From positions 4,432 through 68,431 of IMG/VR virus record IMGVR_UViG_3300032323_002772: 64,000 bases of DNA. One strand, given 5' to 3'. This document shows, one piece after another, positions 19,472 to 60,733 of this stretch. The translations under genes were made by a program, and so were the position numbers. The notes beneath the pieces were generated by a model. The model searched no databases, was not told where the DNA came from, and saw only the letters and a program-made list of their open reading frames with translations. How positions within the stretch are numbered: the stretch's first letter is position 1; each line of letters starts with the position of its first letter. The stretch comes from a virus.

Positions 19472-19933
19472 ATGTCAAAGTTTCAGTCAACTAAGTTATT
19501 TGATGGTTTTAGTACAGTATTTCGTCAATTTAAAGCAGAAGGTACCCACTGCAGATTTCTTCATGGTTATGGGGTATCATTTAGAGTATGGTTCGAAGGC
19601 GAACTAGACGAACGTAATTGGGTTTGGGATTTTGGAGGTATGAAACGTGCTAACGGCACTATCGATGGTATGAATCCTAAAGCATGGATGGACCATATGT
19701 TTGACCATACTACAATTGTAGCTGAAGATGATCCTGGAATTGGTGGGTTTAAGACAATGGATCAACTTGGTATTATTCAATTAAGAATACTCCCAGCTGT
19801 TGGAGCAGAACAGTTTGCAAAATATATTTTTGAAAAATTGAACACATTCGTTCAAGAAGAAACTAGCGGTAGAGTTAAAGTTGTAAGAGTAGAATTCATG
19901 GAAAACAACAAAAATACCGCTATATATGAATAA
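19472..19933 (+). CDS. queD: 6-carboxytetrahydropterin synthase
   Basis: HCRFLHGY, WVWDFGG, FDHT, EFMENNKN; clustered with queC, queE and folE. Confidence 0.85.
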   Translation: MSKFQSTKLFDGFSTVFRQFKAEGTHCRFLHGYGVSFRVWFEGELDERNWVWDFGGMKRANGTIDGMNPKAWMDHMFDHTTIVAEDDPGIGGFKTMDQLGIIQLRILPAVGAEQFAKYIFEKLNTFVQEETSGRVKVVRVEFMENNKNTAIYE

Positions 19934-20201
19934 AAAGTCAAAGAAGGCTCAGCGCAAAGAAATTATTGAGCAAAATCCCCCACTATACCTTAGTGAAGGT
20001 CATTGGGATGATGCTATGTTAGAAGATAATAGTTACTATGATATAGATATTATTAATAAAGCTAATGCTCCTATTTTTAGAAAAATAGAAGAATGGGAGA
20101 AAAACTATGCTAATGCCTCTAGCAACATGGGAAAATGGTACTGCCAGTTACAAATTGATAAATGGAAAAAGAAACTACACAGCTATGAAAGTAAGTCATG
20201 A
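19926..20201 (+). CDS. Hypothetical protein
   Basis: 91 aa ORF overlapping both neighbours. Confidence 0.55.
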   Translation: MNKKSKKAQRKEIIEQNPPLYLSEGHWDDAMLEDNSYYDIDIINKANAPIFRKIEEWEKNYANASSNMGKWYCQLQIDKWKKKLHSYESKS

Positions 20202-20970
20202 ATTACCTTTAGGATTAATGCATTATGCCTATGAGTGGAATGATTATGATTATTGTCTTCCACATCTAATAGATCATTACGATCAATATAGAATATTCTT
20301 TCAGAAATCACGTTTAGACAAACGTTTCATTATAATGGACAATGGTCTTTTCGAGGGTGTAGTTCATACAACTGAAGACTTATTAGAAAAAATTAATTTA
20401 GTTCGTCCTAATATATTCATTGTTCCTGATGCTTGGAATGATGCTACAACTACCCTTCGCAACGCTAAGAGTTGGATGATTAACTACAAACAACATATAC
20501 CTGAAGGTGTTAACTTAATGGCAGTATGTCAAGGTAATGATATGGGAGAATTAATTACAACATATCAAACATTAGTGGATTTAGGTTATACTCACATCGC
20601 ATTTAACCACTCAAGTATTGCATACCAGAAAGAATATGAAGGAATGGATCATCTAAAAGCAGCAATGTACGGTAGAATGGAATTTATTAGACGTTTAGTT
20701 GCATCTAATACTATTAGAAAATCACATTATCACCACCTACTAGGATGTTCACTACCACAAGAATTTATGTCATATAAAGACTGGACATTTATTAAATCAG
20801 TAGATACGTCTAATCCAATTTTAGTTGGTGCTGAAGGCGAAAAATATAGTGATAGTGGTTTAACATGGAAACCTAAAGAGAAACTTGAGTACTATTTTGA
20901 AAAAGATTTAAGTGGGCAGAAAGAAGATATTACATTTAATGTACACAAATTTAGATCATTTATTAAATAA
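20185..20970 (+). CDS. Divergent TGT-fold transglycosylase (DpdA-like)
   Basis: Ordered TGT-like motifs IMDNGLFE, IVPD, AVCQG, HHLLG, SVDTSNP; inside preQ0 cluster; start MKVSHE. Confidence 0.65.
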   Translation: MKVSHELPLGLMHYAYEWNDYDYCLPHLIDHYDQYRIFFQKSRLDKRFIIMDNGLFEGVVHTTEDLLEKINLVRPNIFIVPDAWNDATTTLRNAKSWMINYKQHIPEGVNLMAVCQGNDMGELITTYQTLVDLGYTHIAFNHSSIAYQKEYEGMDHLKAAMYGRMEFIRRLVASNTIRKSHYHHLLGCSLPQEFMSYKDWTFIKSVDTSNPILVGAEGEKYSDSGLTWKPKEKLEYYFEKDLSGQKEDITFNVHKFRSFIK

Positions 20971-20977
20971 AAAAGTT

Positions 20978-21178
20978 ATGACAGAATTTATTTCACTTTA
21001 CGATTATTTAGGTAAAGCAGCAGGTAAGGAATTAGGTAAGCAAGTAGCAGAAGTTGCAGCAGCATCTAGAGTACCATGCAAAACAAGACAAGTATCAAAT
21101 ACAAAATATGCTGGTCCTGTTATGTTATATCCAAGAATATTTTTAGAGTTATATTTTATAGCACATAATAACGCTTAA
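20978..21178 (+). CDS. Hypothetical phage protein
   Basis: SLYDYLGKAAG.ELGKQV...Y.G.VMLYP. Confidence 0.6.
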   Translation: MTEFISLYDYLGKAAGKELGKQVAEVAAASRVPCKTRQVSNTKYAGPVMLYPRIFLELYFIAHNNA

Positions 21179-21230
21179 ACGGGAGTAAGCGTTTAATAAG
21201 TAAATACGATCCCAAATAAACTCATTTTAA

Positions 21231-22094
21231 ATGAAAAAAGCAGTTTTATCATTATCAGGTGGAATGGACAGTAGTTCATTATTGTTACACCTATTAGCTA
21301 ACGGCTATGAAGTAACAGCATTAGGTTTCGATTATGGCCAGAAACACAAAGTAGAATTAGAACGTGCTACATCATTAGTACAGTACGTTAACGAAAAGAA
21401 TTGTGGATGTGGTGGTAAACCTATCTATGGAAATATAACTTTCCAAATCATCAAATTAGATGGTTTATCACAATTACTAAACTCATCTTTAGTAACTGGT
21501 GGAAGTGATGTACCAGAGGGACACTACGAACAGGACAACATGAAAGAAACAGTTGTACCTAACAGAAATAAAATATTTAGTTCATTGATTCAAGCAGTAG
21601 CATTATCAGTTGCAACTAAGAATATTGGTGATGATTGTGCTGTAGGAGAGCCAGTAGCGATTGCGATGGGGATCCATGCTGGTGATCATGCTATTTATCC
21701 TGATTGTAGACAAGAGTTCCGTGATGTTGATTTTGAAGCATTTAAAGCAGGTAATTGGGATGCTGACTTAGTATACCATTACACTCCATACCTTGAAGTT
21801 AATAAATTTGATATTTTAGAGGACGGGCAAAAATCTTGTGATATCTTGGGTCTCGATTTTAATGAAGTATATAAGCGTACAAATACATCTTATAAACCAA
21901 TCTACTATTGCCAAGGTGATGAATTCGGAGAATGGTTCTCAGATTACAAGTCAGCAGCATCAGTAGAACGTATTGAAGCATTTATTAAATTAGGACATCC
22001 TGATCCTGTAGAATATGCTGATGAAACAGGACCAGTAACATGGGAAGTAGCTAAGGCTCATGTAGAAAAAGTATTAGCTGAACACAATTCGTAA
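21231..22094 (+). CDS. queC: 7-cyano-7-deazaguanine synthase
   Basis: SLSGGMDS PP-loop, FDYGQKH, TVVPNRN, YPDCR; no amidotransferase fusion. Confidence 0.9.
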   Translation: MKKAVLSLSGGMDSSSLLLHLLANGYEVTALGFDYGQKHKVELERATSLVQYVNEKNCGCGGKPIYGNITFQIIKLDGLSQLLNSSLVTGGSDVPEGHYEQDNMKETVVPNRNKIFSSLIQAVALSVATKNIGDDCAVGEPVAIAMGIHAGDHAIYPDCRQEFRDVDFEAFKAGNWDADLVYHYTPYLEVNKFDILEDGQKSCDILGLDFNEVYKRTNTSYKPIYYCQGDEFGEWFSDYKSAASVERIEAFIKLGHPDPVEYADETGPVTWEVAKAHVEKVLAEHNS

Positions 22095-22113
22095 ACAAAA
22101 ATCAAATATAGTT

Positions 22114-22350
22114 ATGAGTTATCAAACTAAGGTTCGTGCGAACTACCTTAACCGCACAGCAAAATTGTCATTCTTCACACACCGTCAACGCACTGGTGAT
22201 TTGACAAGATTGTCTGAAGAAACAGGTTATTCAGTTAGCCACTTGTCAAACATTACAAGTTTGAGACGTAGAGTAACAGATGAGATTGCTAATGCAATGT
22301 ACATGTTAACACGTCGTCGTATGAAAAACACTGAATTCGCTCAAGCGTAA
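22114..22350 (+). CDS. Small basic HTH DNA-binding protein
   Basis: LTRLSEETGYSVSHLSNI helix-turn-helix pattern. Confidence 0.55.
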   Translation: MSYQTKVRANYLNRTAKLSFFTHRQRTGDLTRLSEETGYSVSHLSNITSLRRRVTDEIANAMYMLTRRRMKNTEFAQA

Positions 22351-22357
22351 TTCACCC

Positions 22358-22390
22358 AACATCCACCCCTAAAAAGGTGGATGTTTTTTT
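22358..22390 (+). terminator. Intrinsic terminator
   Basis: AACATCCACC-CCTAAAAA-GGTGGATGTT followed by T-run. Confidence 0.85.
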
Positions 22391-22401
22391 AATTTATTAT
22401 T

Positions 22402-22524
22402 ATGCATGAAATATTACATATATTAGGACTATGTGGAGATAAACATCCGAGTGTCATCGCTGTAATTAGTGAGTGGCATAATTTTAGTCCTATATTCAAT
22501 TATATAAAAACATTATTTAAATGA
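22402..22524 (+). CDS. Small hypothetical protein (40 aa)
   Basis: MHEILHILGLCGDKHPS...TLFK*; ATGA overlap with queE start. Confidence 0.5.
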   Translation: MHEILHILGLCGDKHPSVIAVISEWHNFSPIFNYIKTLFK

Positions 22525-23360
22525 GCAAAATTGATCCACATAAACTACTAATCAGTAGTGATTTCTACACTGTGCAGGGTGAAGGTATTTCATCAGGCGT
22601 TCCTTCATACTTCGTACGTTTTGGTATTTGCAACCTAACTTGCGGTATGAGTAGAGCATTTACTAACCAATTAATGAAAGATAAGAATCTAGAAGACGGT
22701 GAAATCTTCGAAGGTGATCTACATAAGGAAGGTAAAGCAACCTGGACTTGTGACTCTACATCTCAGTGGTTATGGAGAGGTGAAGATAAAGAGTTCGATT
22801 ATCTAATTAATCGTTGGAAAGAAGAAGGCGTATACGACTACATTAAAGATGGTTCTGTTCATATTATCTGGACTGGTGGTGAACCAACAATTAAAGGGCA
22901 CCAAGAATCAATCGTTAACTTTACTAATTATTGGTTGAGTAGATATCTTGATAGAAATGATGTAACACCGTTCTATGAAATAGAAACTAATGGTACAATT
23001 GTAATTGAAGAACCATTATTCGTAATGTTGGATCAGATTAACTGTTCACCTAAGTTAAATAACTCAGGTATGACTGAGAAACAACGTATTGTTCCTGCTG
23101 CTATCAAGCGTATTATGGAACATAAAAACTATCAGTTTAAGTTCGTTATCAGCACAGAAGAAGATGTACAAGAATTATTCCGTGACTTCATAGTACCATT
23201 TAATATACCGCTTAAAAACGTTGTTTGTATGCCTGGCTTAGACGATGCTGCTAACTTTGAAGAGCGTACTCAGTTCTGTCTTGAAATGGCTAAGAAGTAT
23301 AGATTCCGTGGTTTAACTAGATTGCATATTGCAGCTTGGAATAAAACATTAAACGTATAA
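22521..23360 (+). CDS. queE: 7-carboxy-7-deazaguanine synthase (radical SAM)
   Basis: FYTVQGEG, CNLTC...WTCDS (long insert within the Cys motif), WTGGEP, EIETNGT, CSPKL. Confidence 0.85.
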   Translation: MSKIDPHKLLISSDFYTVQGEGISSGVPSYFVRFGICNLTCGMSRAFTNQLMKDKNLEDGEIFEGDLHKEGKATWTCDSTSQWLWRGEDKEFDYLINRWKEEGVYDYIKDGSVHIIWTGGEPTIKGHQESIVNFTNYWLSRYLDRNDVTPFYEIETNGTIVIEEPLFVMLDQINCSPKLNNSGMTEKQRIVPAAIKRIMEHKNYQFKFVISTEEDVQELFRDFIVPFNIPLKNVVCMPGLDDAANFEERTQFCLEMAKKYRFRGLTRLHIAAWNKTLNV

Positions 23361-23361
23361 T

Positions 23362-23550
23362 ATGGAAACTTTAGAAATAAGAATTAAATCTAGCTATTTA
23401 GAAGGTGAACTAGTCGTAAAATTAAATTCAGAAGAGAGTGATATAGAAAATATTCGTAAAGAAATTATGTCTATTATTATAAAAGAAAGTGACAGAATTG
23501 CTCAAGGTAAACCATCATATGAAGAATTAATAAAAACATTAAACGTATAA
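23362..23550 (+). CDS. Repeat-flanked mini-gene 1 (62 aa)
   Basis: Starts and stops inside the repeat; ends KTLNV like QueE. Confidence 0.6.
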   Translation: METLEIRIKSSYLEGELVVKLNSEESDIENIRKEIMSIIIKESDRIAQGKPSYEELIKTLNV

Positions 23551-23551
23551 T

Positions 23552-23713
23552 ATGGAAAATATAATAGAAGTAAAATTTTGGATGGAACTTGAAACTACAG
23601 TAGATAATATGAATGAATTTACTAAAAGTGAAGATTATAGATTAGTAGCTGAAATACTTAAAAAGCATTCTATTGATGCAGTTATTTGCTCTAAAGTAAA
23701 ACCAAAACATTAA
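23552..23713 (+). CDS. Repeat-flanked mini-gene 2 (53 aa)
   Basis: MENIIEVKFW...KVKPKH*; absent from the ORF track. Confidence 0.6.
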   Translation: MENIIEVKFWMELETTVDNMNEFTKSEDYRLVAEILKKHSIDAVICSKVKPKH

Positions 23714-23722
23714 ACATATAAT

Positions 23723-23956
23723 ATGGAAAAAGATCATTGTATATTATGTGGTGTGGAAACCATATATGACAAATCAACTCACGTTGATATGAGGCTTGGC
23801 TATATTGAAGGTGCTGGCCAATTATGTCCTAAATGTTATGAAGCAGGAACATACCGCAACCATATTCTAGTACCAGAATGGTTAGTTGAAAAGAATCCTA
23901 ATAATCAAGAGTTGGGAGCCAAAGTAAGGGCATTATATTTCGAAAGTAAAAAATAA
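23723..23956 (+). CDS. Small Zn-finger-like protein
   Basis: CILC...YIEGAGQLCPKC. Confidence 0.65.
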   Translation: MEKDHCILCGVETIYDKSTHVDMRLGYIEGAGQLCPKCYEAGTYRNHILVPEWLVEKNPNNQELGAKVRALYFESKK

Positions 23957-23960
23957 ATAA

Positions 23961-24593
23961 ATGGAATTATTAAAGAAATCAAATGGTAGTTTAGCTCGTA
24001 CACCAGAACAAGTGGAGCAAATGATTAATAATGCATCTGAAGCGTATGCTCAGTTCCTTACAGCAGTAGGATTTGACTACAAAGCAGATAGACAAACTGA
24101 AGATACACCTCGTCGTGTAGCTAAAGCGTGGTTAAAGGACTTAATCGTAGGTAGTATTAGTGATGAACCAAACATTACAGTATTCCCTAATGATGAAGGT
24201 TATAGTGGATTAGTAATTCAATCAGGTATTCCTATCGTTAGTATGTGTGCACATCACAACTTAGCCTTTACAGGTTATGCTACTGTGGCTTACGTACCAG
24301 GCGAAAACGTTATTGGTTTAAGTAAATTAAACCGTATTGTAGAATGGTTTAGCCGCAGACCACAAATGCAAGAATCATTAACACAACAAATTCATGATTA
24401 CATTGCTGATAAAATGTCATGTGAATCAGTAGCAGTTAGTATTGCTTGTAAGCACACATGTTGCTCACATAGAGGTATTAAACATCCATCTGTAATGACT
24501 ACAAATAAGTTTAGTGGTGTGTTTATGGAAAAAGATAATTTAATTAGAGAAGAATTCTTACACGCGATTGAAGTAAATGGAACAAAATTTTAA
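23961..24593 (+). CDS. folE: GTP cyclohydrolase I
   Basis: DTPRRVAK, SMCAHH, IGLSKLNR, RRPQMQE, HTCCSHRG. Confidence 0.92.
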   Translation: MELLKKSNGSLARTPEQVEQMINNASEAYAQFLTAVGFDYKADRQTEDTPRRVAKAWLKDLIVGSISDEPNITVFPNDEGYSGLVIQSGIPIVSMCAHHNLAFTGYATVAYVPGENVIGLSKLNRIVEWFSRRPQMQESLTQQIHDYIADKMSCESVAVSIACKHTCCSHRGIKHPSVMTTNKFSGVFMEKDNLIREEFLHAIEVNGTKF

Positions 24594-24594
24594 T

Positions 24595-24987
24595 ATGAAC
24601 AAAAGATTTATTACCTGGGACTATATTGAGACTGCTGTGGATAACATAGCATCTCAAGTAGAATCCAGTGGGCTAGATATTCAATATATATTTGGAATGC
24701 CTAGAGGAGGATTAATACCTGCTGTAATGTTATCTCATAAATTAAACATTCCACTATTTAAATTTGGAATGGTATTAAATAATAAAGTACTGATAGTAGA
24801 TGATATTTGCGATTCAGGACTAACATTACACAAGTATAATGTTCCAACAGCAGCAATTCACACAAAAGAAACTGCATCTATACAACCAACATTCTACTAT
24901 GAAATAGTAGATAAAGATTGGATAAATTATCCATGGGAGAGAGCAGATTCAAAAACAATACAAGATTATGCAACCAAAGGAGAGTAA
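24595..24987 (+). CDS. Type I phosphoribosyltransferase (xanthine/guanine PRT-like)
   Basis: GMPRGGLIPA, VLIVDDICDSGLTL PRPP loop, WINYPWE. Confidence 0.85.
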   Translation: MNKRFITWDYIETAVDNIASQVESSGLDIQYIFGMPRGGLIPAVMLSHKLNIPLFKFGMVLNNKVLIVDDICDSGLTLHKYNVPTAAIHTKETASIQPTFYYEIVDKDWINYPWERADSKTIQDYATKGE

Positions 24988-32350: not shown

Positions 32351-32644
32351 ATGAAAATAAAACCGTTACACAATCACGTAGTGATTAAACAACAAGACGA
32401 AACTGAAACAATGTATGGTAACATTGTAGTACCTGATATGGGTAAAGAAAAACCATTAATGGGTGAAGTAGTAGCAGTAGGACCTGGTGTCTATTCTATT
32501 ACTGGAGAATGCTTTATTGAAACCAAAATTGAAGTAGGTGAAACGGTAGTGTTTCCTGCCTTTGGTGGAACCAAAATGACCGTTGAAGGAGAAGAATTCA
32601 TTGTAATGAAAGAATCTGATTTGTTGGCAATTTTAGAAAAATAA
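32351..32644 (+). CDS. groES: Co-chaperonin GroES
   Basis: MKIKPLHNHVVIK, KEKPLMGEVVAVGPG, ESDLLAIL. Confidence 0.92.
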   Translation: MKIKPLHNHVVIKQQDETETMYGNIVVPDMGKEKPLMGEVVAVGPGVYSITGECFIETKIEVGETVVFPAFGGTKMTVEGEEFIVMKESDLLAILEK

Positions 32645-32647
32645 GAT

Positions 32648-34267
32648 ATGAGTAAAATAATAAAATTTAATCGCGAAGCGAAAGAAAAACTACAAGCAGG
32701 TATTGATAAAGTAAATAACGCTGTAGCAGTTACGATGGGTCCTTTTGGACGTAATGTACTAATTGAAAAAGAACATGGACAAGTAAGTAGCACTAAGGAT
32801 GGTGTTACAGTTGCTAAAACAATTTCATTGGAAGATCCAATTGAAAATATGGCTGCAACAGTAATTAAGCAAGCAGCATCTAAAACAGTTGATGCAGCTG
32901 GTGATGGTACAACTACATCTACTGTATTGGCTCATGCTATTGCTAAACAAGCATTAGATATTACTGCTCATTCATCTACTAATGCTACTCAAGTAAAACG
33001 TGGTATCGAAGAGGCTGTTAAAATAATAGTTGCTGAATTAAAGAAAATGTCTGTAGACATTACTGATGAAAAGCAAATTAAACAAATTGCCACTCTATCA
33101 GCTAATGGCGATACCGAAATTGGAGAATTAGTAGCTACAGCTATTGATAAAGTAGGTAGAGACGGAATTGTAACAGTTGAAGAATCTAGATCAGGTGAAA
33201 CTGAACTTGAAGTAGTAGAGGGATTACAATTCGATAGAGGTTATAAATCACCTTATATGGTGACTGATAACAACACAATGCAATCAATTTTAAATGATGC
33301 CTTTGTATTGCTATATGATGGTCGTTTAAGTGCAATTAAGGATTTACTTCCTGTTCTTGAGCGTGTATCATCTGATAATAAAGCATTATTGATTGTAGCT
33401 GAAGATATTGATGGTGAAGCACTATCTACTCTTATTGTAAATAAAATGAGAGGTATCTTGAAAGTAGCTGCTGTTAAAGCACCTGACTTTGGAGAACGTA
33501 GAACGTTAATTTTAGAAGATATTGCTACTGTAACTGGTGGTACTGTAATTTCACCTGCTAAAGGTATGAAATTAGAACGCTTCAATATGGAGTGGTTAGG
33601 TAAAGCTAGAACAATTACTGTAGGTAAAGATACTACTACTATTGTTGATGGTAAAGGAGGTGAAGATAAAATTAACGAGCGTATTTTAGAAATCAAATCT
33701 CAGATTGAAGGATCTAATTCACCATATGAGGTAGAACGTTTACAAGATCGTTTAGCTAAAATCGTTGGTGGTGTAGCTATTATTAATGTAGGTGGTGGTA
33801 CTGAAATTGAGATGAAAGAAAAGAAAGATCGTATCGATGACGCTTTACAAGCTACAAAAGCCGCTCTTGAAGAAGGTGTATTACCAGGTGCTGGTGTAGC
33901 ATTACTACAAGCAAGAAAAGCTCTTGATATTAACAACTCAGGTAATGATGATAAGAATAAAGGTAAACAAATTGTATTTGTAGCTTGTGGAAAACCATTT
34001 AAACAAATCTTAACAAACGCTGGTGAAGATCATAATAATTGGTGGATGCAATTAATTAAAACCATTAATATGGTTCCTAATATTGCCGATGGAACAATAG
34101 TAGACGCATTTGAATCAGGTATTATCGATCCTACTAAAGTAGTACGTTGTGCCCTTGAAAATGCTGCTCACGCTGCGGTTACATTGTTGATGACTGAATG
34201 TGTTATCCACGATAAGCCAACAGAGAAAAAGAAAGACGAACTTGATTTATCATCATTAGGAATGTAA
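32648..34267 (+). CDS. groEL: Chaperonin GroEL
   Basis: TMGPFGRNV, TKDGVTVAK, AGDGTTT, GLQFDRGY, GIIDPTKV. Confidence 0.95.
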   Translation: MSKIIKFNREAKEKLQAGIDKVNNAVAVTMGPFGRNVLIEKEHGQVSSTKDGVTVAKTISLEDPIENMAATVIKQAASKTVDAAGDGTTTSTVLAHAIAKQALDITAHSSTNATQVKRGIEEAVKIIVAELKKMSVDITDEKQIKQIATLSANGDTEIGELVATAIDKVGRDGIVTVEESRSGETELEVVEGLQFDRGYKSPYMVTDNNTMQSILNDAFVLLYDGRLSAIKDLLPVLERVSSDNKALLIVAEDIDGEALSTLIVNKMRGILKVAAVKAPDFGERRTLILEDIATVTGGTVISPAKGMKLERFNMEWLGKARTITVGKDTTTIVDGKGGEDKINERILEIKSQIEGSNSPYEVERLQDRLAKIVGGVAIINVGGGTEIEMKEKKDRIDDALQATKAALEEGVLPGAGVALLQARKALDINNSGNDDKNKGKQIVFVACGKPFKQILTNAGEDHNNWWMQLIKTINMVPNIADGTIVDAFESGIIDPTKVVRCALENAAHAAVTLLMTECVIHDKPTEKKKDELDLSSLGM

Positions 34268-56907: not shown

Positions 56908-57510
56908 ATGCCTTTAGCTAAACCTATATCTAGGGAAGACGTTTTGCGCGCAATGCGCTTTACGAAATCAAATCGTGCTGCCGCTAAGTATTTAGGTTGC
57001 TCATACCAACACTATAAGCCGTTTGCTAAATTATTTAAGGTAGATGAAAGCGATCACAATTCGCCTTCACTATTTGATGTTCATAAAAACCAAAGCGGTA
57101 AAGGTATTCCTAAATTCCTACCTGATAGAAAACGTTCACCAAACGTTAAAAACATAGTTGAAACAGGTACTGGATGGGAATCATTTACACCTGAAAAGAT
57201 AAAATCAAGATTAATAGCTGAAAACTATTTAAGAGAAGAATGTTACGCTTGTGGCTTCTGCGAACGCAGAGTTACTGATTATAAAATACCACTATTATTA
57301 AATTTTAAAGATGGAAACAAATTTAATTACCTACTTGATAATTTGGAGCTGTTATGTTACAACCACTATTTTCTGCTTGTGGCCGACCCTCTTACCCCAG
57401 ACCAAGTACGTCATATCGAAGATAATACAACTGTCAAAGCTGTCTCGCACGATTGGGATCTAGATGAAGCTCATTTAGAGAACATGAAAGCATTAGGATT
57501 GTTGGATTAG
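56908..57510 (+). CDS. HTH plus degenerate HNH-like Zn-finger protein
   Basis: SNRAAAKYLGCSY HTH; CYACG...LNFKDGNKFN..LDNLELLCYNH (catalytic His not evident). Confidence 0.6.
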   Translation: MPLAKPISREDVLRAMRFTKSNRAAAKYLGCSYQHYKPFAKLFKVDESDHNSPSLFDVHKNQSGKGIPKFLPDRKRSPNVKNIVETGTGWESFTPEKIKSRLIAENYLREECYACGFCERRVTDYKIPLLLNFKDGNKFNYLLDNLELLCYNHYFLLVADPLTPDQVRHIEDNTTVKAVSHDWDLDEAHLENMKALGLLD

Positions 57511-57552
57511 GCAAAATAAGGTCGTACATTTACGGTATAAATAAATAAAAAT

Positions 57553-57840
57553 ATGAGTTACGAATTAGCACAAAAATATGCTGACTTTCAAATTCCAAAG
57601 GAAGTTAAACAAGCATACAAATCAGGAGTTCAATTGATCGGATCGTTAGGATTCACTAAGATGATGATGTTCGCAAATGAAAATCAAATCACAAATGATG
57701 ATATTGATTATTACATGAACAGAAAACCTCAAAGACAAGAAGATGAGACAGTAGAACAAATGAAATTAAGAGGTAAATTCTCACAAGCATTATATAAGTA
57801 CAGAGCATATTTGTACGATTATTCAGTATATCAAAATTAA
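57553..57840 (+). CDS. Hypothetical protein
   Basis: 95 aa ORF after host-type promoter. Confidence 0.6.
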   Translation: MSYELAQKYADFQIPKEVKQAYKSGVQLIGSLGFTKMMMFANENQITNDDIDYYMNRKPQRQEDETVEQMKLRGKFSQALYKYRAYLYDYSVYQN

Positions 57841-57845
57841 TAAAC

Positions 57846-58067
57846 ATGGGACAGTATTTTCAAGTAAAAGTACAATTTTCTGATATCGATGATAAAGGAA
57901 AGGTAAAAAAGGAAAACATTGCATATTTAGTCGACGCGCAGTCAGTTACTGAAGCAGAAGCTAGAGTAGTAAAGTTCTTAACAGATGAAGATGAAACTAA
58001 CTTTGAAGTTAAAGCAGCATCTGAATCTAAAATTGCTCAAGTAATTGTTGCTGATTCAGCAGAATAA
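57846..58067 (+). CDS. DUF4494-like protein
   Basis: YF.VKV...G..KK...YLVDA.S.TEAEAR. Confidence 0.7.
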   Translation: MGQYFQVKVQFSDIDDKGKVKKENIAYLVDAQSVTEAEARVVKFLTDEDETNFEVKAASESKIAQVIVADSAE

Positions 58068-58074
58068 CTAGCAG

Positions 58075-58146
58075 GCTCTCATCGTCTAACGGTTAGGACA
58101 CCAGGTTTTCATCCTGGTAATACGAGTTCGATTCTCGTTGAGAGTA
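58075..58146 (+). tRNA. tRNA-Glu(TTC)
   Basis: GCTCTCA/TGAGAGT acceptor; CCAGG-TTTTCAT-CCTGG; T arm GTTCGAT. Confidence 0.9.
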
Positions 58147-58148
58147 CA

Positions 58149-58308
58149 AGGTTGATTGGAATGGATTAATCAGCAGGGGATTTGTAAACCCCATTGCAAG
58201 ACAATGACAAACACAGGTCAAAACTGATGCAATATGCTGAATTATATCAATCGGTTAGAAATGCCAATCGTAAAAGTAGATGTCCACGCACCCATCTTCT
58301 ACTTTCCT
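58149..58308 (+). ncRNA. Unknown multi-stem structured RNA
   Basis: Nested helices GATTGG/CCAATC, TCAGCA/TGCTGA, GGGG/CCCC, ATTGCA/TGCAAT, AAAGTAG/CTACTTT; lies between two tRNAs. Confidence 0.55.
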
Positions 58309-58312
58309 AAAT

Positions 58313-58385
58313 TCCAGAATAGCTCAGCAGGTAGAGCAACTGATTTGTAATCAGTAGGTCGCAAGTTCGATTCTTGTTTCTGGAT
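58313..58385 (+). tRNA. tRNA-Thr(TGT)
   Basis: TCCAGAA/TTCTGGA; GCTC/GAGC D arm; ACTGA-TTTGTAA-TCAGT. Confidence 0.9.
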
Positions 58386-58388
58386 CAA

Positions 58389-58487
58389 GGATGAGAGTAG
58401 ACGAAAGTGGAAGCACCCGTCAGTCACGTGTAACTCGTGGTGCAGCAAGTAGAAACTTTGTTTAGTCGGCCAACTAAACCTCATCCA
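58389..58487 (+). ncRNA. Unknown cloverleaf-like RNA
   Basis: GGATGAG/CTCATCC closing stem with four internal hairpins. Confidence 0.5.
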
Positions 58488-58490
58488 TAT

Positions 58491-58585
58491 AGTCAGGTAG
58501 CTTACTATAGGAAGCACTCCTCGCTTGGGGAGTTCCATCTCAGCTCTCCGGAGGGCTGATACAGGTTCGAACCCTGTCCTGACTA
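58491..58585 (+). ncRNA. tRNA-like RNA with non-canonical anticodon arm
   Basis: AGTCAGG/CCTGACT, GCTT/AAGC D arm, ACAGG-TTCGAAC-CCTGT T arm; 8-nt anticodon loop; long extra arm. Confidence 0.65.
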
Positions 58586-58647
58586 CGAAACCCAAGAGCC
58601 TCTCAAAGTAAGCACACTGGTTGACAGCTTGGAAAGACGAGCAAATT

Positions 58648-58734
58648 GGAAGCTTGCCAGAGTGGTTGAATGGAACGGTCTTGAAAACCGTCATACTGGA
58701 AACGGTATCTGGGGTTCGAATCCCTGAGCTTCCG
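58648..58734 (+). tRNA. tRNA-Ser(TGA)
   Basis: GGAAGCT/AGCTTCC; ACGGT-CTTGAAA-ACCGT; long variable arm; G73. Confidence 0.92.
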
Positions 58735-58739
58735 CAAAC

Positions 58740-58810
58740 TGCCCTTTAGTATAACGGTAGTACGACAGTTTTTGGTACTGTTTGTTGAGGTTCGAATCCT
58801 TGAGGGGCAA
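58740..58810 (+). tRNA. tRNA-Gln(TTG)
   Basis: TGCCCTT/AGGGGCA; ACAGT-TTTTGGT-ACTGT; GGTTCGAATCC. Confidence 0.9.
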
Positions 58811-58841
58811 CATTAGGTTCGTATATTTAAAATAAAAAATT

Positions 58842-59069
58842 ATGTTTTGGACAATTTACGCAATAAGCGTTATTTATTGCTTTTATCAATTAGTAAAACG
58901 CTACAGAGCAACTGACTTAAGAGGCGGTGGATTAGATTCAGCCCCAGGATTAGATGGAGTTATGGTACTTTTCCTAGCACCAGTATTAGCTGTAGTTGAC
59001 GTTACTTTAACTTGGATAAGAATTTATAAAGAAGCTGAAGAAGCAAGACGAAGAAACAATACACTGTAG
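58842..59069 (+). CDS. Small two-TM membrane protein
   Basis: Two hydrophobic segments in 75 aa. Confidence 0.6.
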   Translation: MFWTIYAISVIYCFYQLVKRYRATDLRGGGLDSAPGLDGVMVLFLAPVLAVVDVTLTWIRIYKEAEEARRRNNTL

Positions 59070-59221
59070 GGTGGTGAAATGGCTCTAGAGCTTGGCAGAC
59101 ACACCCACTCGTCTCGTGGGCACAGAGCATGAAATAGATAAATGATACGGGTTGACCACAAAGCCGGCTTATTTGTCATTTATCAAATCACTGTGTGCTG
59201 GTTCGACTCCAGCCCCTACAG
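59065..59221 (+). ncRNA. Large tRNA-like RNA with D-loop insert and ~75-nt extra arm
   Basis: TGTAGGG/CCCTACA; CCCAC-TCGTCTC-GTGGG; GCTGG-TTCGACT-CCAGC. Confidence 0.65.
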
Positions 59222-59226
59222 CTAAT

Positions 59227-59316
59227 GCCCTTGTGGTGGAATAGGTAGACACGCAGGACTTAAAATCCTGTTCGCCGAAAAAGCGAGTGCGGGTTCGATT
59301 CCCGCTGGGGGCACCA
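59227..59316 (+). tRNA. tRNA-Leu(TAA)
   Basis: CAGGA-CTTAAAA-TCCTG; variable arm; encoded CCA. Confidence 0.92.
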
Positions 59317-59328
59317 ATAGTTATTGAT

Positions 59329-59658
59329 ATGGCATGTCACTGTTTAATGTTAAAGGATCAACGTGAATTCTTTCAAATGATGAAAGATAGGAATAGCGAT
59401 TTGATTCTTAAAATGGTTAAATGTGTACTTAGCGCATATAAACGAAATAAAGACGGAATTGAAATATTCGATATCACATTCAAGGATATGAGTGGTATGA
59501 TATTTAATATTGAAAAATCGCAATATACTGAATTATTATCTAATTGCTTAAACGACTTAATTGCACTTGAAGAATATGAACTGTGCGCTGAAGTTAAAAA
59601 AATATTAGATAAAAAATCTAAAAAAACATCTGGGGATGTTCCGGTATTTGATCAGTAA
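59329..59658 (+). CDS. Hypothetical protein with C-terminal UVR-like motif
   Basis: LIALEEYELCAEVKKIL; resembles 56165-56482; 3' end overlaps tmRNA. Confidence 0.55.
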   Translation: MACHCLMLKDQREFFQMMKDRNSDLILKMVKCVLSAYKRNKDGIEIFDITFKDMSGMIFNIEKSQYTELLSNCLNDLIALEEYELCAEVKKILDKKSKKTSGDVPVFDQ

Positions 59659-60016
59659 TTCGGAGGTAATACCACACGCGGACAAAGTAAGATAAGTCCT
59701 TAAAACCTTGCGAAACAATAACTGTAGAATTATCTACTATGACCTTCGAAGATATGATGTCTTTCGTTGGTGCGGATTACGCAGTAGCTGCCTAGTCCAA
59801 CTCGGGTCGGTGCACATATAACCTAGGAACAGAAGTGTTTACAAAGGCTTTATTCGTTGAGCCCATTAATCAACGAATTGGTGGAACGCTATTCTAACCA
59901 AATGGCCCCAATTCTTCTGGAACAGTAGTAAGATTAAACTGTTATACTAAGCGTGTGAGACGTTGGTATTATTGTTCATTATTGAGACACGAGTTCGACT
60001 CTCGTCATCTCCACCA
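59632..60016 (+). ncRNA. ssrA: tmRNA
   Basis: GGGGATG/CATCTCC-ACCA acceptor with G3:U; T arm ACGAG-TTCGACT-CTCGT; tag ORF ending YAVAA* after ATAACT-G. Confidence 0.9.
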
Positions 60017-60019
60017 ATT

Positions 60020-60048
60020 AGAGCAACCGTAGCTGGTTGCTCTTTCTC
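60020..60048 (+). terminator. Intrinsic terminator after tmRNA
   Basis: AGAGCAACC-GTAGCT-GGTTGCTCT then TTCTC. Confidence 0.7.
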
Positions 60049-60082
60049 TATATTTATAATTAACCACATTAAAAATTAAGAG

Positions 60083-60733
60083 ATGCAACAAAAACCAGTT
60101 ACAACGGCCATAAGCCTACGCGAACGGATTGCGCAAGGCGTATTATTTCTATTCGGAGCGCTTATAATCACGGGCCTAGCAATACAATTATACTTCGTAT
60201 ATTGTCAATTCTTTAAATCTTACGACGAAAATTTACAAATGTCTAATGCAATTAGTCATAAAATTGATGGGACATTTAAAAATAGTCCTGGTAATATATG
60301 GTATGATGCAGATGAACATATCTGGGTTCAAAGTGTAACTAACAAAGTAGTTATCGGTAAATTAGCAGGTAACCGCAATTTAGAATTTGGTGTTAAGAAT
60401 GTATTAGAAGAATACTTACAAGAAAAAGGATTGAATTTATCTCCTGAAGCTGAAAATAAACTAAAAGTAGAAATCATTTATTTAGACGTTCTAACTACTA
60501 AAAAGAACGTATCTGTATTTCATAAAAACGAACAAGAAGTCGTTATTCGTTTAAAAGGTATCCTATACAAAGACGGTATCAAAGAAAAAGAGGTTATCGT
60601 TGAAGAAAGCTCATCTGAAATCTCTATGTCAACTCTGATAGTAGATGAAGGTGGTAAATTCAACCAAACAAGTCTAAGTAATGCGCTTAAGAAAGGTTGT
60701 GACAAATTAATCACAAAACTATTAGAAAAATAA
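60083..60733 (+). CDS. Membrane-anchored protein (possible CsgG/TolB_N-like fold)
   Basis: N-terminal TM helix; GVKNVLEEYL...SLSNALKKG. Confidence 0.5.
   Translation: MQQKPVTTAISLRERIAQGVLFLFGALIITGLAIQLYFVYCQFFKSYDENLQMSNAISHKIDGTFKNSPGNIWYDADEHIWVQSVTNKVVIGKLAGNRNLEFGVKNVLEEYLQEKGLNLSPEAENKLKVEIIYLDVLTTKKNVSVFHKNEQEVVIRLKGILYKDGIKEKEVIVEESSSEISMSTLIVDEGGKFNQTSLSNALKKGCDKLITKLLEK

Follow-up and report, generated by a model that had tools for sequence, protein, structure and literature searches.

A phage tRNA array contains a strand-specific, structurally constrained RNA gene, which our comparative analysis showed to be single-copy in the large genomes examined and often to fit a tRNA slot exactly. 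The family to which it belongs comprised, when pooled, at least 155 distinct element sequences of 73-160 nt from IMG/VR phage contigs, and covariation showed that its core is a predicted three-way junction of the helices P1, P2 and P3. We consider it very probable that this is a real functional RNA. Our preferred reading of its biology, to which we assign a probability of roughly 0.6 for the whole picture, is that of a small trans-acting RNA that would be co-transcribed with the tRNAs and freed by tRNA processing.

The window analyzed here is a 64-kb stretch of a 68-kb IMG/VR virus record with a completeness estimate of 29%. Its G+C content is 33%, and all ORFs of at least 60 aa lie on the + strand. 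PHROG matches to baseplate and tail proteins, a gp32-type SSB, UvsX, a clamp loader and a family-B polymerase, with further matches to GroES/GroEL and a 7-deazaguanine gene set, point to a distant T4-like myovirus. The identity of its PolB to those of cultured phages was at most 35.6%, the closest being that of Microcystis phage Mel-JY01. The matches to the 7-deazaguanine pathway (QueD, QueC, QueE and GTP cyclohydrolase) and the GroES/GroEL pair are located at 19472-24984 (+) and 32351-34264 (+), and the Que gene set has a phosphoribosyl-transferase-like neighbor.

ARAGORN identified five tRNAs and a tmRNA at 58075-60016, and Rfam 15 at gathering scores found five tRNAs, the tmRNA and nothing else in the whole window. 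A terminator scan of 57400-60400 revealed no terminator-like site in the array interior; the sole + strand terminator-like site with 10 pairs was at 60020-60043, directly 3' of the tmRNA. The element occupies 58149-58308 (+) inside the 165-nt spacer between tRNA-Glu and tRNA-Thr, 1-2 nt from the 3' end of the former and 4 nt from the start of the latter. The first-pass annotation had described it as filling the spacer and as containing no ORF; the spacer has 1 and 4 nt to spare, and the + strand ORFs at the element are of 38 aa only. Both CM and pattern searches found one copy of the element in the window. The neighboring tRNAs and the parts of the window copy, with values from the alignments A1, A2 and A3 described below, are as follows.

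58075..58147 (+): tRNA-Glu(UUC), upstream neighbor (ARAGORN; Rfam tRNA, 64 bits)
58149..58151 (+): P1 5' strand AGG, pairing with CCT at 58306-58308 (A3: 100% of cells paired, double changes in 2/3 pairs)
58153..58159 (+): P2 5' strand TGATTGG, partner CCAATCG at 58264-58270 (A3: 99.8% paired, double changes in 4/7 pairs)
58160..58162 (+): P2 inner extension, 5' side AAU, partner GUU at 58254-58256 in the MFE fold
58163..58248 (+): module B, an inserted Y-shaped domain (MFE fold, IMG/VR instances)
58257..58263 (+): internal-loop strand AGAAAUG (family consensus AGWAAYG; columns invariant or nearly so in A1 and A2)
58264..58270 (+): P2 3' strand CCAATCG (A1 and A3 covariation)
58273..58282 (+): P3 5' arm AAAGTAGATG (double changes in 5/9 pairs; one pair in four Watson-Crick types)
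58283..58295 (+): P3 apical loop UCCACGCACCCAU (flanks UCCAC and CCAU conserved, middle 4 nt variable)
58296..58305 (+): P3 3' arm CTTCTACTTT (A3 covariation)
58306..58308 (+): P1 3' strand CCT, running on from the P3 3' arm
58313..58386 (+): tRNA-Thr(UGU), downstream neighbor (ARAGORN; Rfam tRNA, 71 bits)

Every helix that had been proposed from the letters of the window was found in place and recurred in the MFE fold: AGG (58149-58151) with CCT (58306-58308), GATTGG (58154-58159) with CCAATC (58264-58269), TCAGCA (58170-58175) with TGCTGA (58235-58240) and the GGGG/CCCC hairpin, ATTGCA (58193-58198) with TGCAAT (58228-58233), and the 3' hairpin at 58273-58305. The fold of the window copy alone was no better than that of shuffled sequence, with z values of -0.72 on the + strand (44 of 200 shuffles folded equally well) and -1.33 on the - strand (23 of 200). 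That the structure exceeds chance was indicated by comparative evidence, since each of the three outer helices shows conservation and covariation throughout the family; the inner three helices of the window copy are a rare insert, module B, found in eight places. The first-pass annotation had presented the element as a structured RNA of about 160 nt. Its structure was borne out and its unity was not: the window copy consists of a three-way-junction scaffold of about 73 nt and an 86-nt lineage-specific insert.

Relatives were gathered with partly fixed patterns. An exact 33-nt pattern of the P3 hairpin matched 51 IMG/VR stretches, which upon alignment shared a common 5' end, AGGUUGAUUGG(G/A)A, and a common 3' end, GCCAAUCRUAAAAG-hairpin-CUUUCCU, on either side of a middle of very different length and sequence. 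Conservation of the element was very high among these loci and their flanks were dissimilar; the flanks of the element are A/U-rich and single-stranded. The P2-anchored pattern, which fixed both P2 strands only, matched 98 stretches, of which 51 were unrelated, mostly coding DNA and the other 47 contained the element in full. The loop-anchored pattern, which fixed only UAAAA and the loop flanks, gave at least 123 matches in at least 120 stretches; those listed included two chance matches, one element truncated by the contig end and one shortened form. The window copy was among the three longest of the element sequences listed.

Three alignments were analyzed. A1 comprised 79 distinct sequences and was used to build a covariance model (CM R1), and A2 comprised 45 sequences of the GGAGUU (long) class. 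A3 was obtained by a CM search of 100 sources, which yielded 98 matches (exactly one in the window) and 84 distinct rows. Because the pattern behind each set fixes part of the sequence, conservation of the pattern-fixed parts is by construction; because the alignment rows are related, shuffle controls overstate significance. Slid controls and the number of pair types are safer measures than shuffles.

The core consists of P1 (AGG/CCU), P2 (UGAUUGG/CCAAUCR, with a conserved asymmetric internal loop) and P3, a hairpin of 8-10 bp with the 13-nt loop UCCAC-N4-CCAU, in which at least 18 variants of N4 occur. P3 stacks on P1 via the continuous 3' strand. All members share three features: the junction, the P3 loop, and an internal loop of P2 in which GG(G)RA lies across from AGWAAYG. 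The AGAAAUG strand of the window copy faces GG(G)RA at 58158-58161, and the minimal 73-nt relatives carry AAC/GUU or AAU/GUU at the P2 inner extension, as judged by eye.

Under the three-helix model, 99.3% of the cells in A1 were paired and 8 of the 19 pairs showed double changes; when the 3' partners were shifted by 1-3 columns in the slid control, 36-62% were paired. The 84 distinct rows of A3 gave 99.1% and 11 of 19, respectively, against 34-67% paired in the slid control, and none of 500 shuffles attained any of the measures. P3 was the most telling helix, one of its pairs occurring as C-G (28), G-C (24), U-A (23) and A-U (7). Covariation in P1 took the form of A-U to U-A in three sequences and G-C to A-U in one. 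The first pair of P2 in A3 was U·G in 56 of 83 sequences and U-A in 27, and the RNA is read from the + (tRNA) strand, because this U·G would be A·C on the other strand. With homologs collected and covariation seen in A1, A2 and A3, the earlier reading of the spacer as a structured RNA is supported.

A complement to the P3 loop was absent from both strands of the window at up to 3 mismatches. When an intramolecular partner of the loop was sought by eye, short complements were found in some subclasses, none of them common to all, and the 73-nt forms were without a candidate. The P2 internal loop was also compared with the k-turn and with loop-E/sarcin-ricin (AGUA opposite GAA); neither motif is claimed here, the registers not fitting either consensus cleanly.

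The tip of P2 tolerates insertions, carrying nothing, a hairpin, a pseudoknot domain (in an element of about 125-135 nt) or the 86-nt module B. Among the sequences listed, at least 5, of 73-75 nt, had almost nothing at the tip, and module B was present in 3 (the window and two other contigs). At least 31 sequences had a hairpin with the conserved loop AACUGUAGR, at least 54 had a larger domain with GGAGUU, and at least 62 had inserts of other kinds. RNAalifold found compensatory changes in 17 of 26 pairs in A2, and a hand-drawn model added a 3-bp helix and an 8-bp pseudoknot in which a hairpin loop pairs with a segment 3' of GGAGUU. With the hand-drawn model, 96.6% of the cells were paired and 26 of 38 pairs were double-changed, the pseudoknot helix itself being 98% paired with double changes in 6 of its 8 pairs. 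Complex folds thus occur in the family, since the pseudoknot model of A2 is supported by covariation.

Module B is made up of an outer stem, the TCAGCA/TGCTGA helix, the GGGG/CCCC hairpin, and ATTGCA/TGCAAT around a GAC/GTC-type hairpin. It was found in eight places in all, the window and seven other IMG/VR contigs: as a solitary unit flanked by tRNAs and closed by a 7-bp stem of its own (2 contigs), downstream of a complete element (3 contigs), and nested in P2 (the window and 2 contigs). Since nesting recurs in copies that differ in sequence, misassembly is not the explanation. Covariation among seven sequences was confined to 3 of the 25 predicted pairs, all in the outer closing stem; the inner helices never vary and are therefore neutral as evidence. 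The UUUGUAA loop of the GGGG/CCCC hairpin is identical to the anticodon loop of tRNA-Thr(UGU), a match that we treated as coincidence because it is lost in one of the two other nested copies.

Tandem pairs of different subtypes were observed at 8 of the 51 hairpin-pattern loci (L004, L009, L019, L032, L034, L038, L048 and L051, at about 1914-2173 in each). The two copies lay 8 nt apart between tRNA-Trp and tRNA-Tyr, the first with the loop middle GCAC and a hairpin-type insert and the second with UGAA and a pseudoknot-type insert. They are two paralogous subtypes in which the loop sequence tracks the insert type.

Genomic context was analyzed for a sample of 107 instances with flanks of 300-1500 nt. 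A tRNA called by ARAGORN ended at most 4 nt upstream in 32 instances and started at most 8 nt downstream in 36; tRNAs were this close on both sides in 15 and on either side in 53. A tRNA or tmRNA was present within the flank in 76 of the instances and absent in 31, and none of the tRNAs around the 107 instances was on the strand opposite to the element. The tRNAs before the element (Glu, Ser, Trp, Met, Cys, Gly, Val or Leu) and after it (Thr, Tyr, Glu, Leu, Met or Ile) vary, as does its position within arrays of up to 17 tRNAs. Copies without tRNAs lay 3-9 nt past a stop codon and 11-45 nt ahead of an unrelated small ORF. Since several of these were tight between two ORFs, tRNA processing is not the sole release route.

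The same data led us to reject a cis-regulatory 5' leader of one gene family, because the ORFs downstream of the tRNA-less copies encode unrelated small proteins and most copies precede tRNAs. Five records of 237-322 kb, four of which are at least 90% complete, each contained one CM match. Each of these records also gave one exact match to the loop pattern, and matches with one mismatch were at the level of the reversed-pattern control. With one copy in each of the five records and one in the window, a repeat, MITE or REP-like element was likewise rejected. So was an intrinsic terminator: the P3 hairpin is followed by CCUAAAUUCC, and the scan of 57400-60400 showed no site there.

Several other segments of the array are conserved. 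The 58387-58490 (+) spacer between tRNA-Thr and the next, odd tRNA has a closed multi-hairpin fold (closing stem GGAUGAG/CUCAUCC, z -2.18), is 81-91% conserved in 5 of the 51 hairpin-pattern loci, and is a second candidate spacer RNA. The odd tRNA, at 58491-58587 (+), is an unannotated type-II tRNA-like gene that was missed by ARAGORN and scored 36.3 bits with the Rfam tRNA model (gathering score, 29) in a permissive-threshold search. Its cloverleaf fold has a long variable arm (z -2.63), and its anticodon arm is unusual, with either a 7-bp stem and a 4-nt loop or a 5-bp stem and an 8-nt loop; at related loci, ARAGORN reported 'anticodons' of 4 nt ('atga', L056) and 2 nt ('tg', L079). Just upstream of tRNA-Leu, at 59065-59226 (+), lies another tRNA-like gene, in which the 7-bp acceptor stem (UGUAGGG/CCCUACA) is separated from a canonical T-arm, CUGGUUCGACUCCAG, by an insertion of about 90 nt. 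It was called by neither ARAGORN nor Rfam, and at least 19 of the 51 hairpin-pattern loci show conservation of its 3' part.

The 315 nt between tRNA-Leu and the tmRNA (59317-59631, +) are 73-90% conserved in 6 of the 51 hairpin-pattern loci, with no Rfam match and a weak fold signal (z -1.77); they could be another non-coding RNA or a tmRNA leader. The phage tmRNA itself (59632-60016, +; Rfam, 76.6 bits) has a tag peptide ending in GADYAVAA and is followed by the 10-bp terminator-like hairpin at 60020-60043; related contigs have tmRNAs with different tags. L049 (2048-2190), L021 and L011 share a block, UUUAAGGAACGYUGGGGYUACGGAUUCCGUCCUCUCACGUUUAAAC..., located downstream of module B or the element and before the next tRNA, which suggests a set of interchangeable non-tRNA modules in these arrays.

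Searches for known RNAs agreed with the earlier statement that the element could not be matched to a known family. Rfam 15 (4227 models) gave nothing over 58148-58312 when 57900-60300 was searched at E≤10. Because the insert of the window copy might mask a match, 10 representative relatives (minimal, hairpin, pseudoknot and module-B forms) were also searched, at E≤5, and nothing was found over the element. A tRNA was rejected, as neither ARAGORN nor RF00005 gave a match at 58148-58312, and so were the known self-cleaving ribozymes (hammerhead, twister, twister-sister, pistol, hatchet, HDV-like and hairpin), for which there was no Rfam match.

When three variants were searched by blastn, none matched any of 50,697 GenBank phage records, and a 4-kb query matched tRNAs only. 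By CM, the RNA was absent from Microcystis phage Mel-JY01, the closest cultured PolB relative, and from a Flavobacterium phage with shared tRNA similarity. None of 401 sampled genomes of one bacterial phylum contained a 26-nt search pattern, and CM R1 detected nothing in three sampled genomes of that phylum. A 14-base loop pattern was also run against genome contigs; the hairpin was present in none of the at least 120 stretches among the matches listed, and we regard these matches as chance because of this and because the pattern is too loose. Searches of the full-text literature yielded no description of this RNA.

The nearest precedents are the small RNAs rnaC (species 1, 139 nt) and rnaD (species 2, 119 nt) of T4, which lie directly after tRNA-Arg in the tRNA cluster, on the same strand, with gaps of 1 and 6 nt. 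The phage of the window is also T4-like, distantly (UvsX, gp32-type SSB, clamp loader, PolB), and the element likewise lies directly after a tRNA in its cluster. We know of no function for rnaC or rnaD. Homology with them was rejected: CM R1 with filters off gave a best score of 11.2 bits (E 0.15) in the T4 tRNA region, off rnaC/rnaD, and no match at E≤0.1 in the whole T4 genome. By eye there was no likeness between rnaC or rnaD and the family; the 3' part of rnaC is truly T-arm/acceptor-like, unlike that of the family RNA.

GOLLD and ROOL are phage or prophage non-coding RNAs of unknown function that PMC12286853 describes as 'often near tRNA islands'; their folds are complex, backed by covariation and pseudoknotted; many GOLLD RNAs exceed 800 nt, ROOL is large, and both form multimeric nanocages (PMC12286853). 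Going by this description, the vicinity of tRNAs and pseudoknots are common to them and the family, although the family RNAs are of only 73-160 nt among the sequences listed. Membership was rejected on this size and because neither Rfam model matched.

The DNAVirus_N catalogue (Comput Struct Biotechnol J 2023, PMC10690425), with 8495 candidates of 29-151 nt, used the same source (IMG/VR intergenic regions) and the same method (covariation) as this study. Four motif strings were absent from six supplementary files of PMC10690425, its two alignment files apart, and the portions of the article considered here describe no tRNA-spacer family of such architecture; the motif or the P3 hairpin may be listed there unnamed. 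The family also resembles tRNA-like RNAs (the tRNA-like domain of tmRNA, and YrlA) in its tRNA slot, its end-clamping terminal stem with a variable domain between, and its coaxial stack with a continuous 3' strand, but it has no cloverleaf or T-loop and its terminal stem is of 3 bp; ARAGORN and the Rfam tRNA, tmRNA and YrlA models scored the element in no case. The sequence, the architecture and the modular insertion site are new, apart from the possible listing in PMC10690425. The kind is already known, being that of phage RNAs of unknown function beside tRNA genes (T4 species 1/2, GOLLD and ROOL).

According to our preferred reading, the RNA would be transcribed as part of the tRNA/tmRNA operon and released by an RNase P cut at the next tRNA and by 3'-end processing (RNase Z/E type) of the previous one; the close fit against the tRNAs makes such discrete release plausible. 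With its ends shielded by P1, the RNA would be stable. Its action in trans would consist in offering the invariant unpaired nucleotides (the P3 loop, the P2 internal loop and the junction) to a conserved partner, most likely a protein or RNA of the tRNA/translation machinery, and a second contact would be provided or adjusted by whichever P2 domain is present. The probability of any particular partner is much less than that of the picture as a whole. It is also conceivable, at well below even odds, that the RNA is a natural modular scaffold, which would make it a new class of trans-acting phage RNA: an invariant three-way-junction handle in a tRNA slot, matured and stabilized like a tRNA, would dock a host tRNA/translation component via its double-CCA loop, and swappable cargo at the P2 tip (the pseudoknot domain, the AACUGUAGR hairpin, or module B, which also stands free between tRNAs) would set the target or effect.

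We considered it unlikely that the element works only in cis, in the processing or stability of the tRNA operon, and is functionless once released; it would then be a structured spacer directing RNase E/III/P cuts or insulating neighboring tRNAs from misfolding. Abutment to a tRNA on at least one side in 53 of 107 instances, A/U-rich single-stranded flanks and the constant use of the tRNA strand are in keeping with such a role; however, punctuation would be expected at many spacers, and arrays with as many as 17 tRNAs have a single copy per genome. Copies also lie between ORFs with no tRNA nearby, and the invariant 13-nt loop, the conserved internal loop and the pseudoknot domain far exceed the needs of a spacer. 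We rate as very improbable a new class of ribozyme that would cleave itself at its boundary and thereby help to part neighboring tRNAs: the many invariant junction and loop nucleotides, the pseudoknot of the largest class and a 5' end 1-4 nt past a tRNA in 32 of 107 instances would suit it, but no known ribozyme family matches, the 73-nt minimal forms have no pseudoknot domain, and a swappable P2 domain is unlike a catalytic core.

The tRNA arrays of phages counteract defenses directed at tRNAs. The RNA might be imagined as a mimic of the tRNA end, a decoy that titrates a host tRNA-recognizing factor, be it an anti-phage nuclease that attacks tRNAs, RNase P, an enzyme that handles CCA, a site on the ribosome or the like; we hold this to be improbable. 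With its uninterrupted 3' strand and its length of about 11-13 bp, the coaxial stack of P1 and P3 is reminiscent of an acceptor/T-arm minihelix, every P3 loop variant listed has a CCA in each of its two conserved flanks, and the gene sits in the tRNA array of a phage with a tmRNA and other odd tRNA-like genes. This resemblance to tRNA is our own reading, however, and the RNA has no T-loop or cloverleaf, is not scored by ARAGORN or the Rfam tRNA models, has a P1 of 3 bp only, and carries its CCA triplets internally rather than at the 3' terminus. Least credible of these alternatives, with a very low probability, is that the element works as DNA, whether as a miniature mobile element, as a site for attachment or packaging, or as a palindrome bound by a protein. 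Very high conservation against differing flanks, a variable position in arrays and the nested or free-standing occurrence of module B speak for it; the single copy in five of five large genomes and in the window, the G·U pairs that make the helices strand-specific, and the compensatory changes that maintain the three helices and the pseudoknot speak against it.

Unexplained stable RNAs of phage tRNA clusters began with T4 species 1/2 and later came to include GOLLD and ROOL; the family described here is a compact and abundant example, with its at least 155 distinct sequences and one copy per jumbo-phage genome examined. Its covariation-resolved fold, pseudoknot subclass and clear insertion-tolerant site make it tractable for probing, pull-downs and structural work, and it constitutes a natural experiment in RNA modularity. 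The array region may be a reservoir of undescribed RNAs. If its targets are tRNA-processing or translation factors or tRNA-directed defenses, this family would partly explain the elaborate tRNA regions of large phages.
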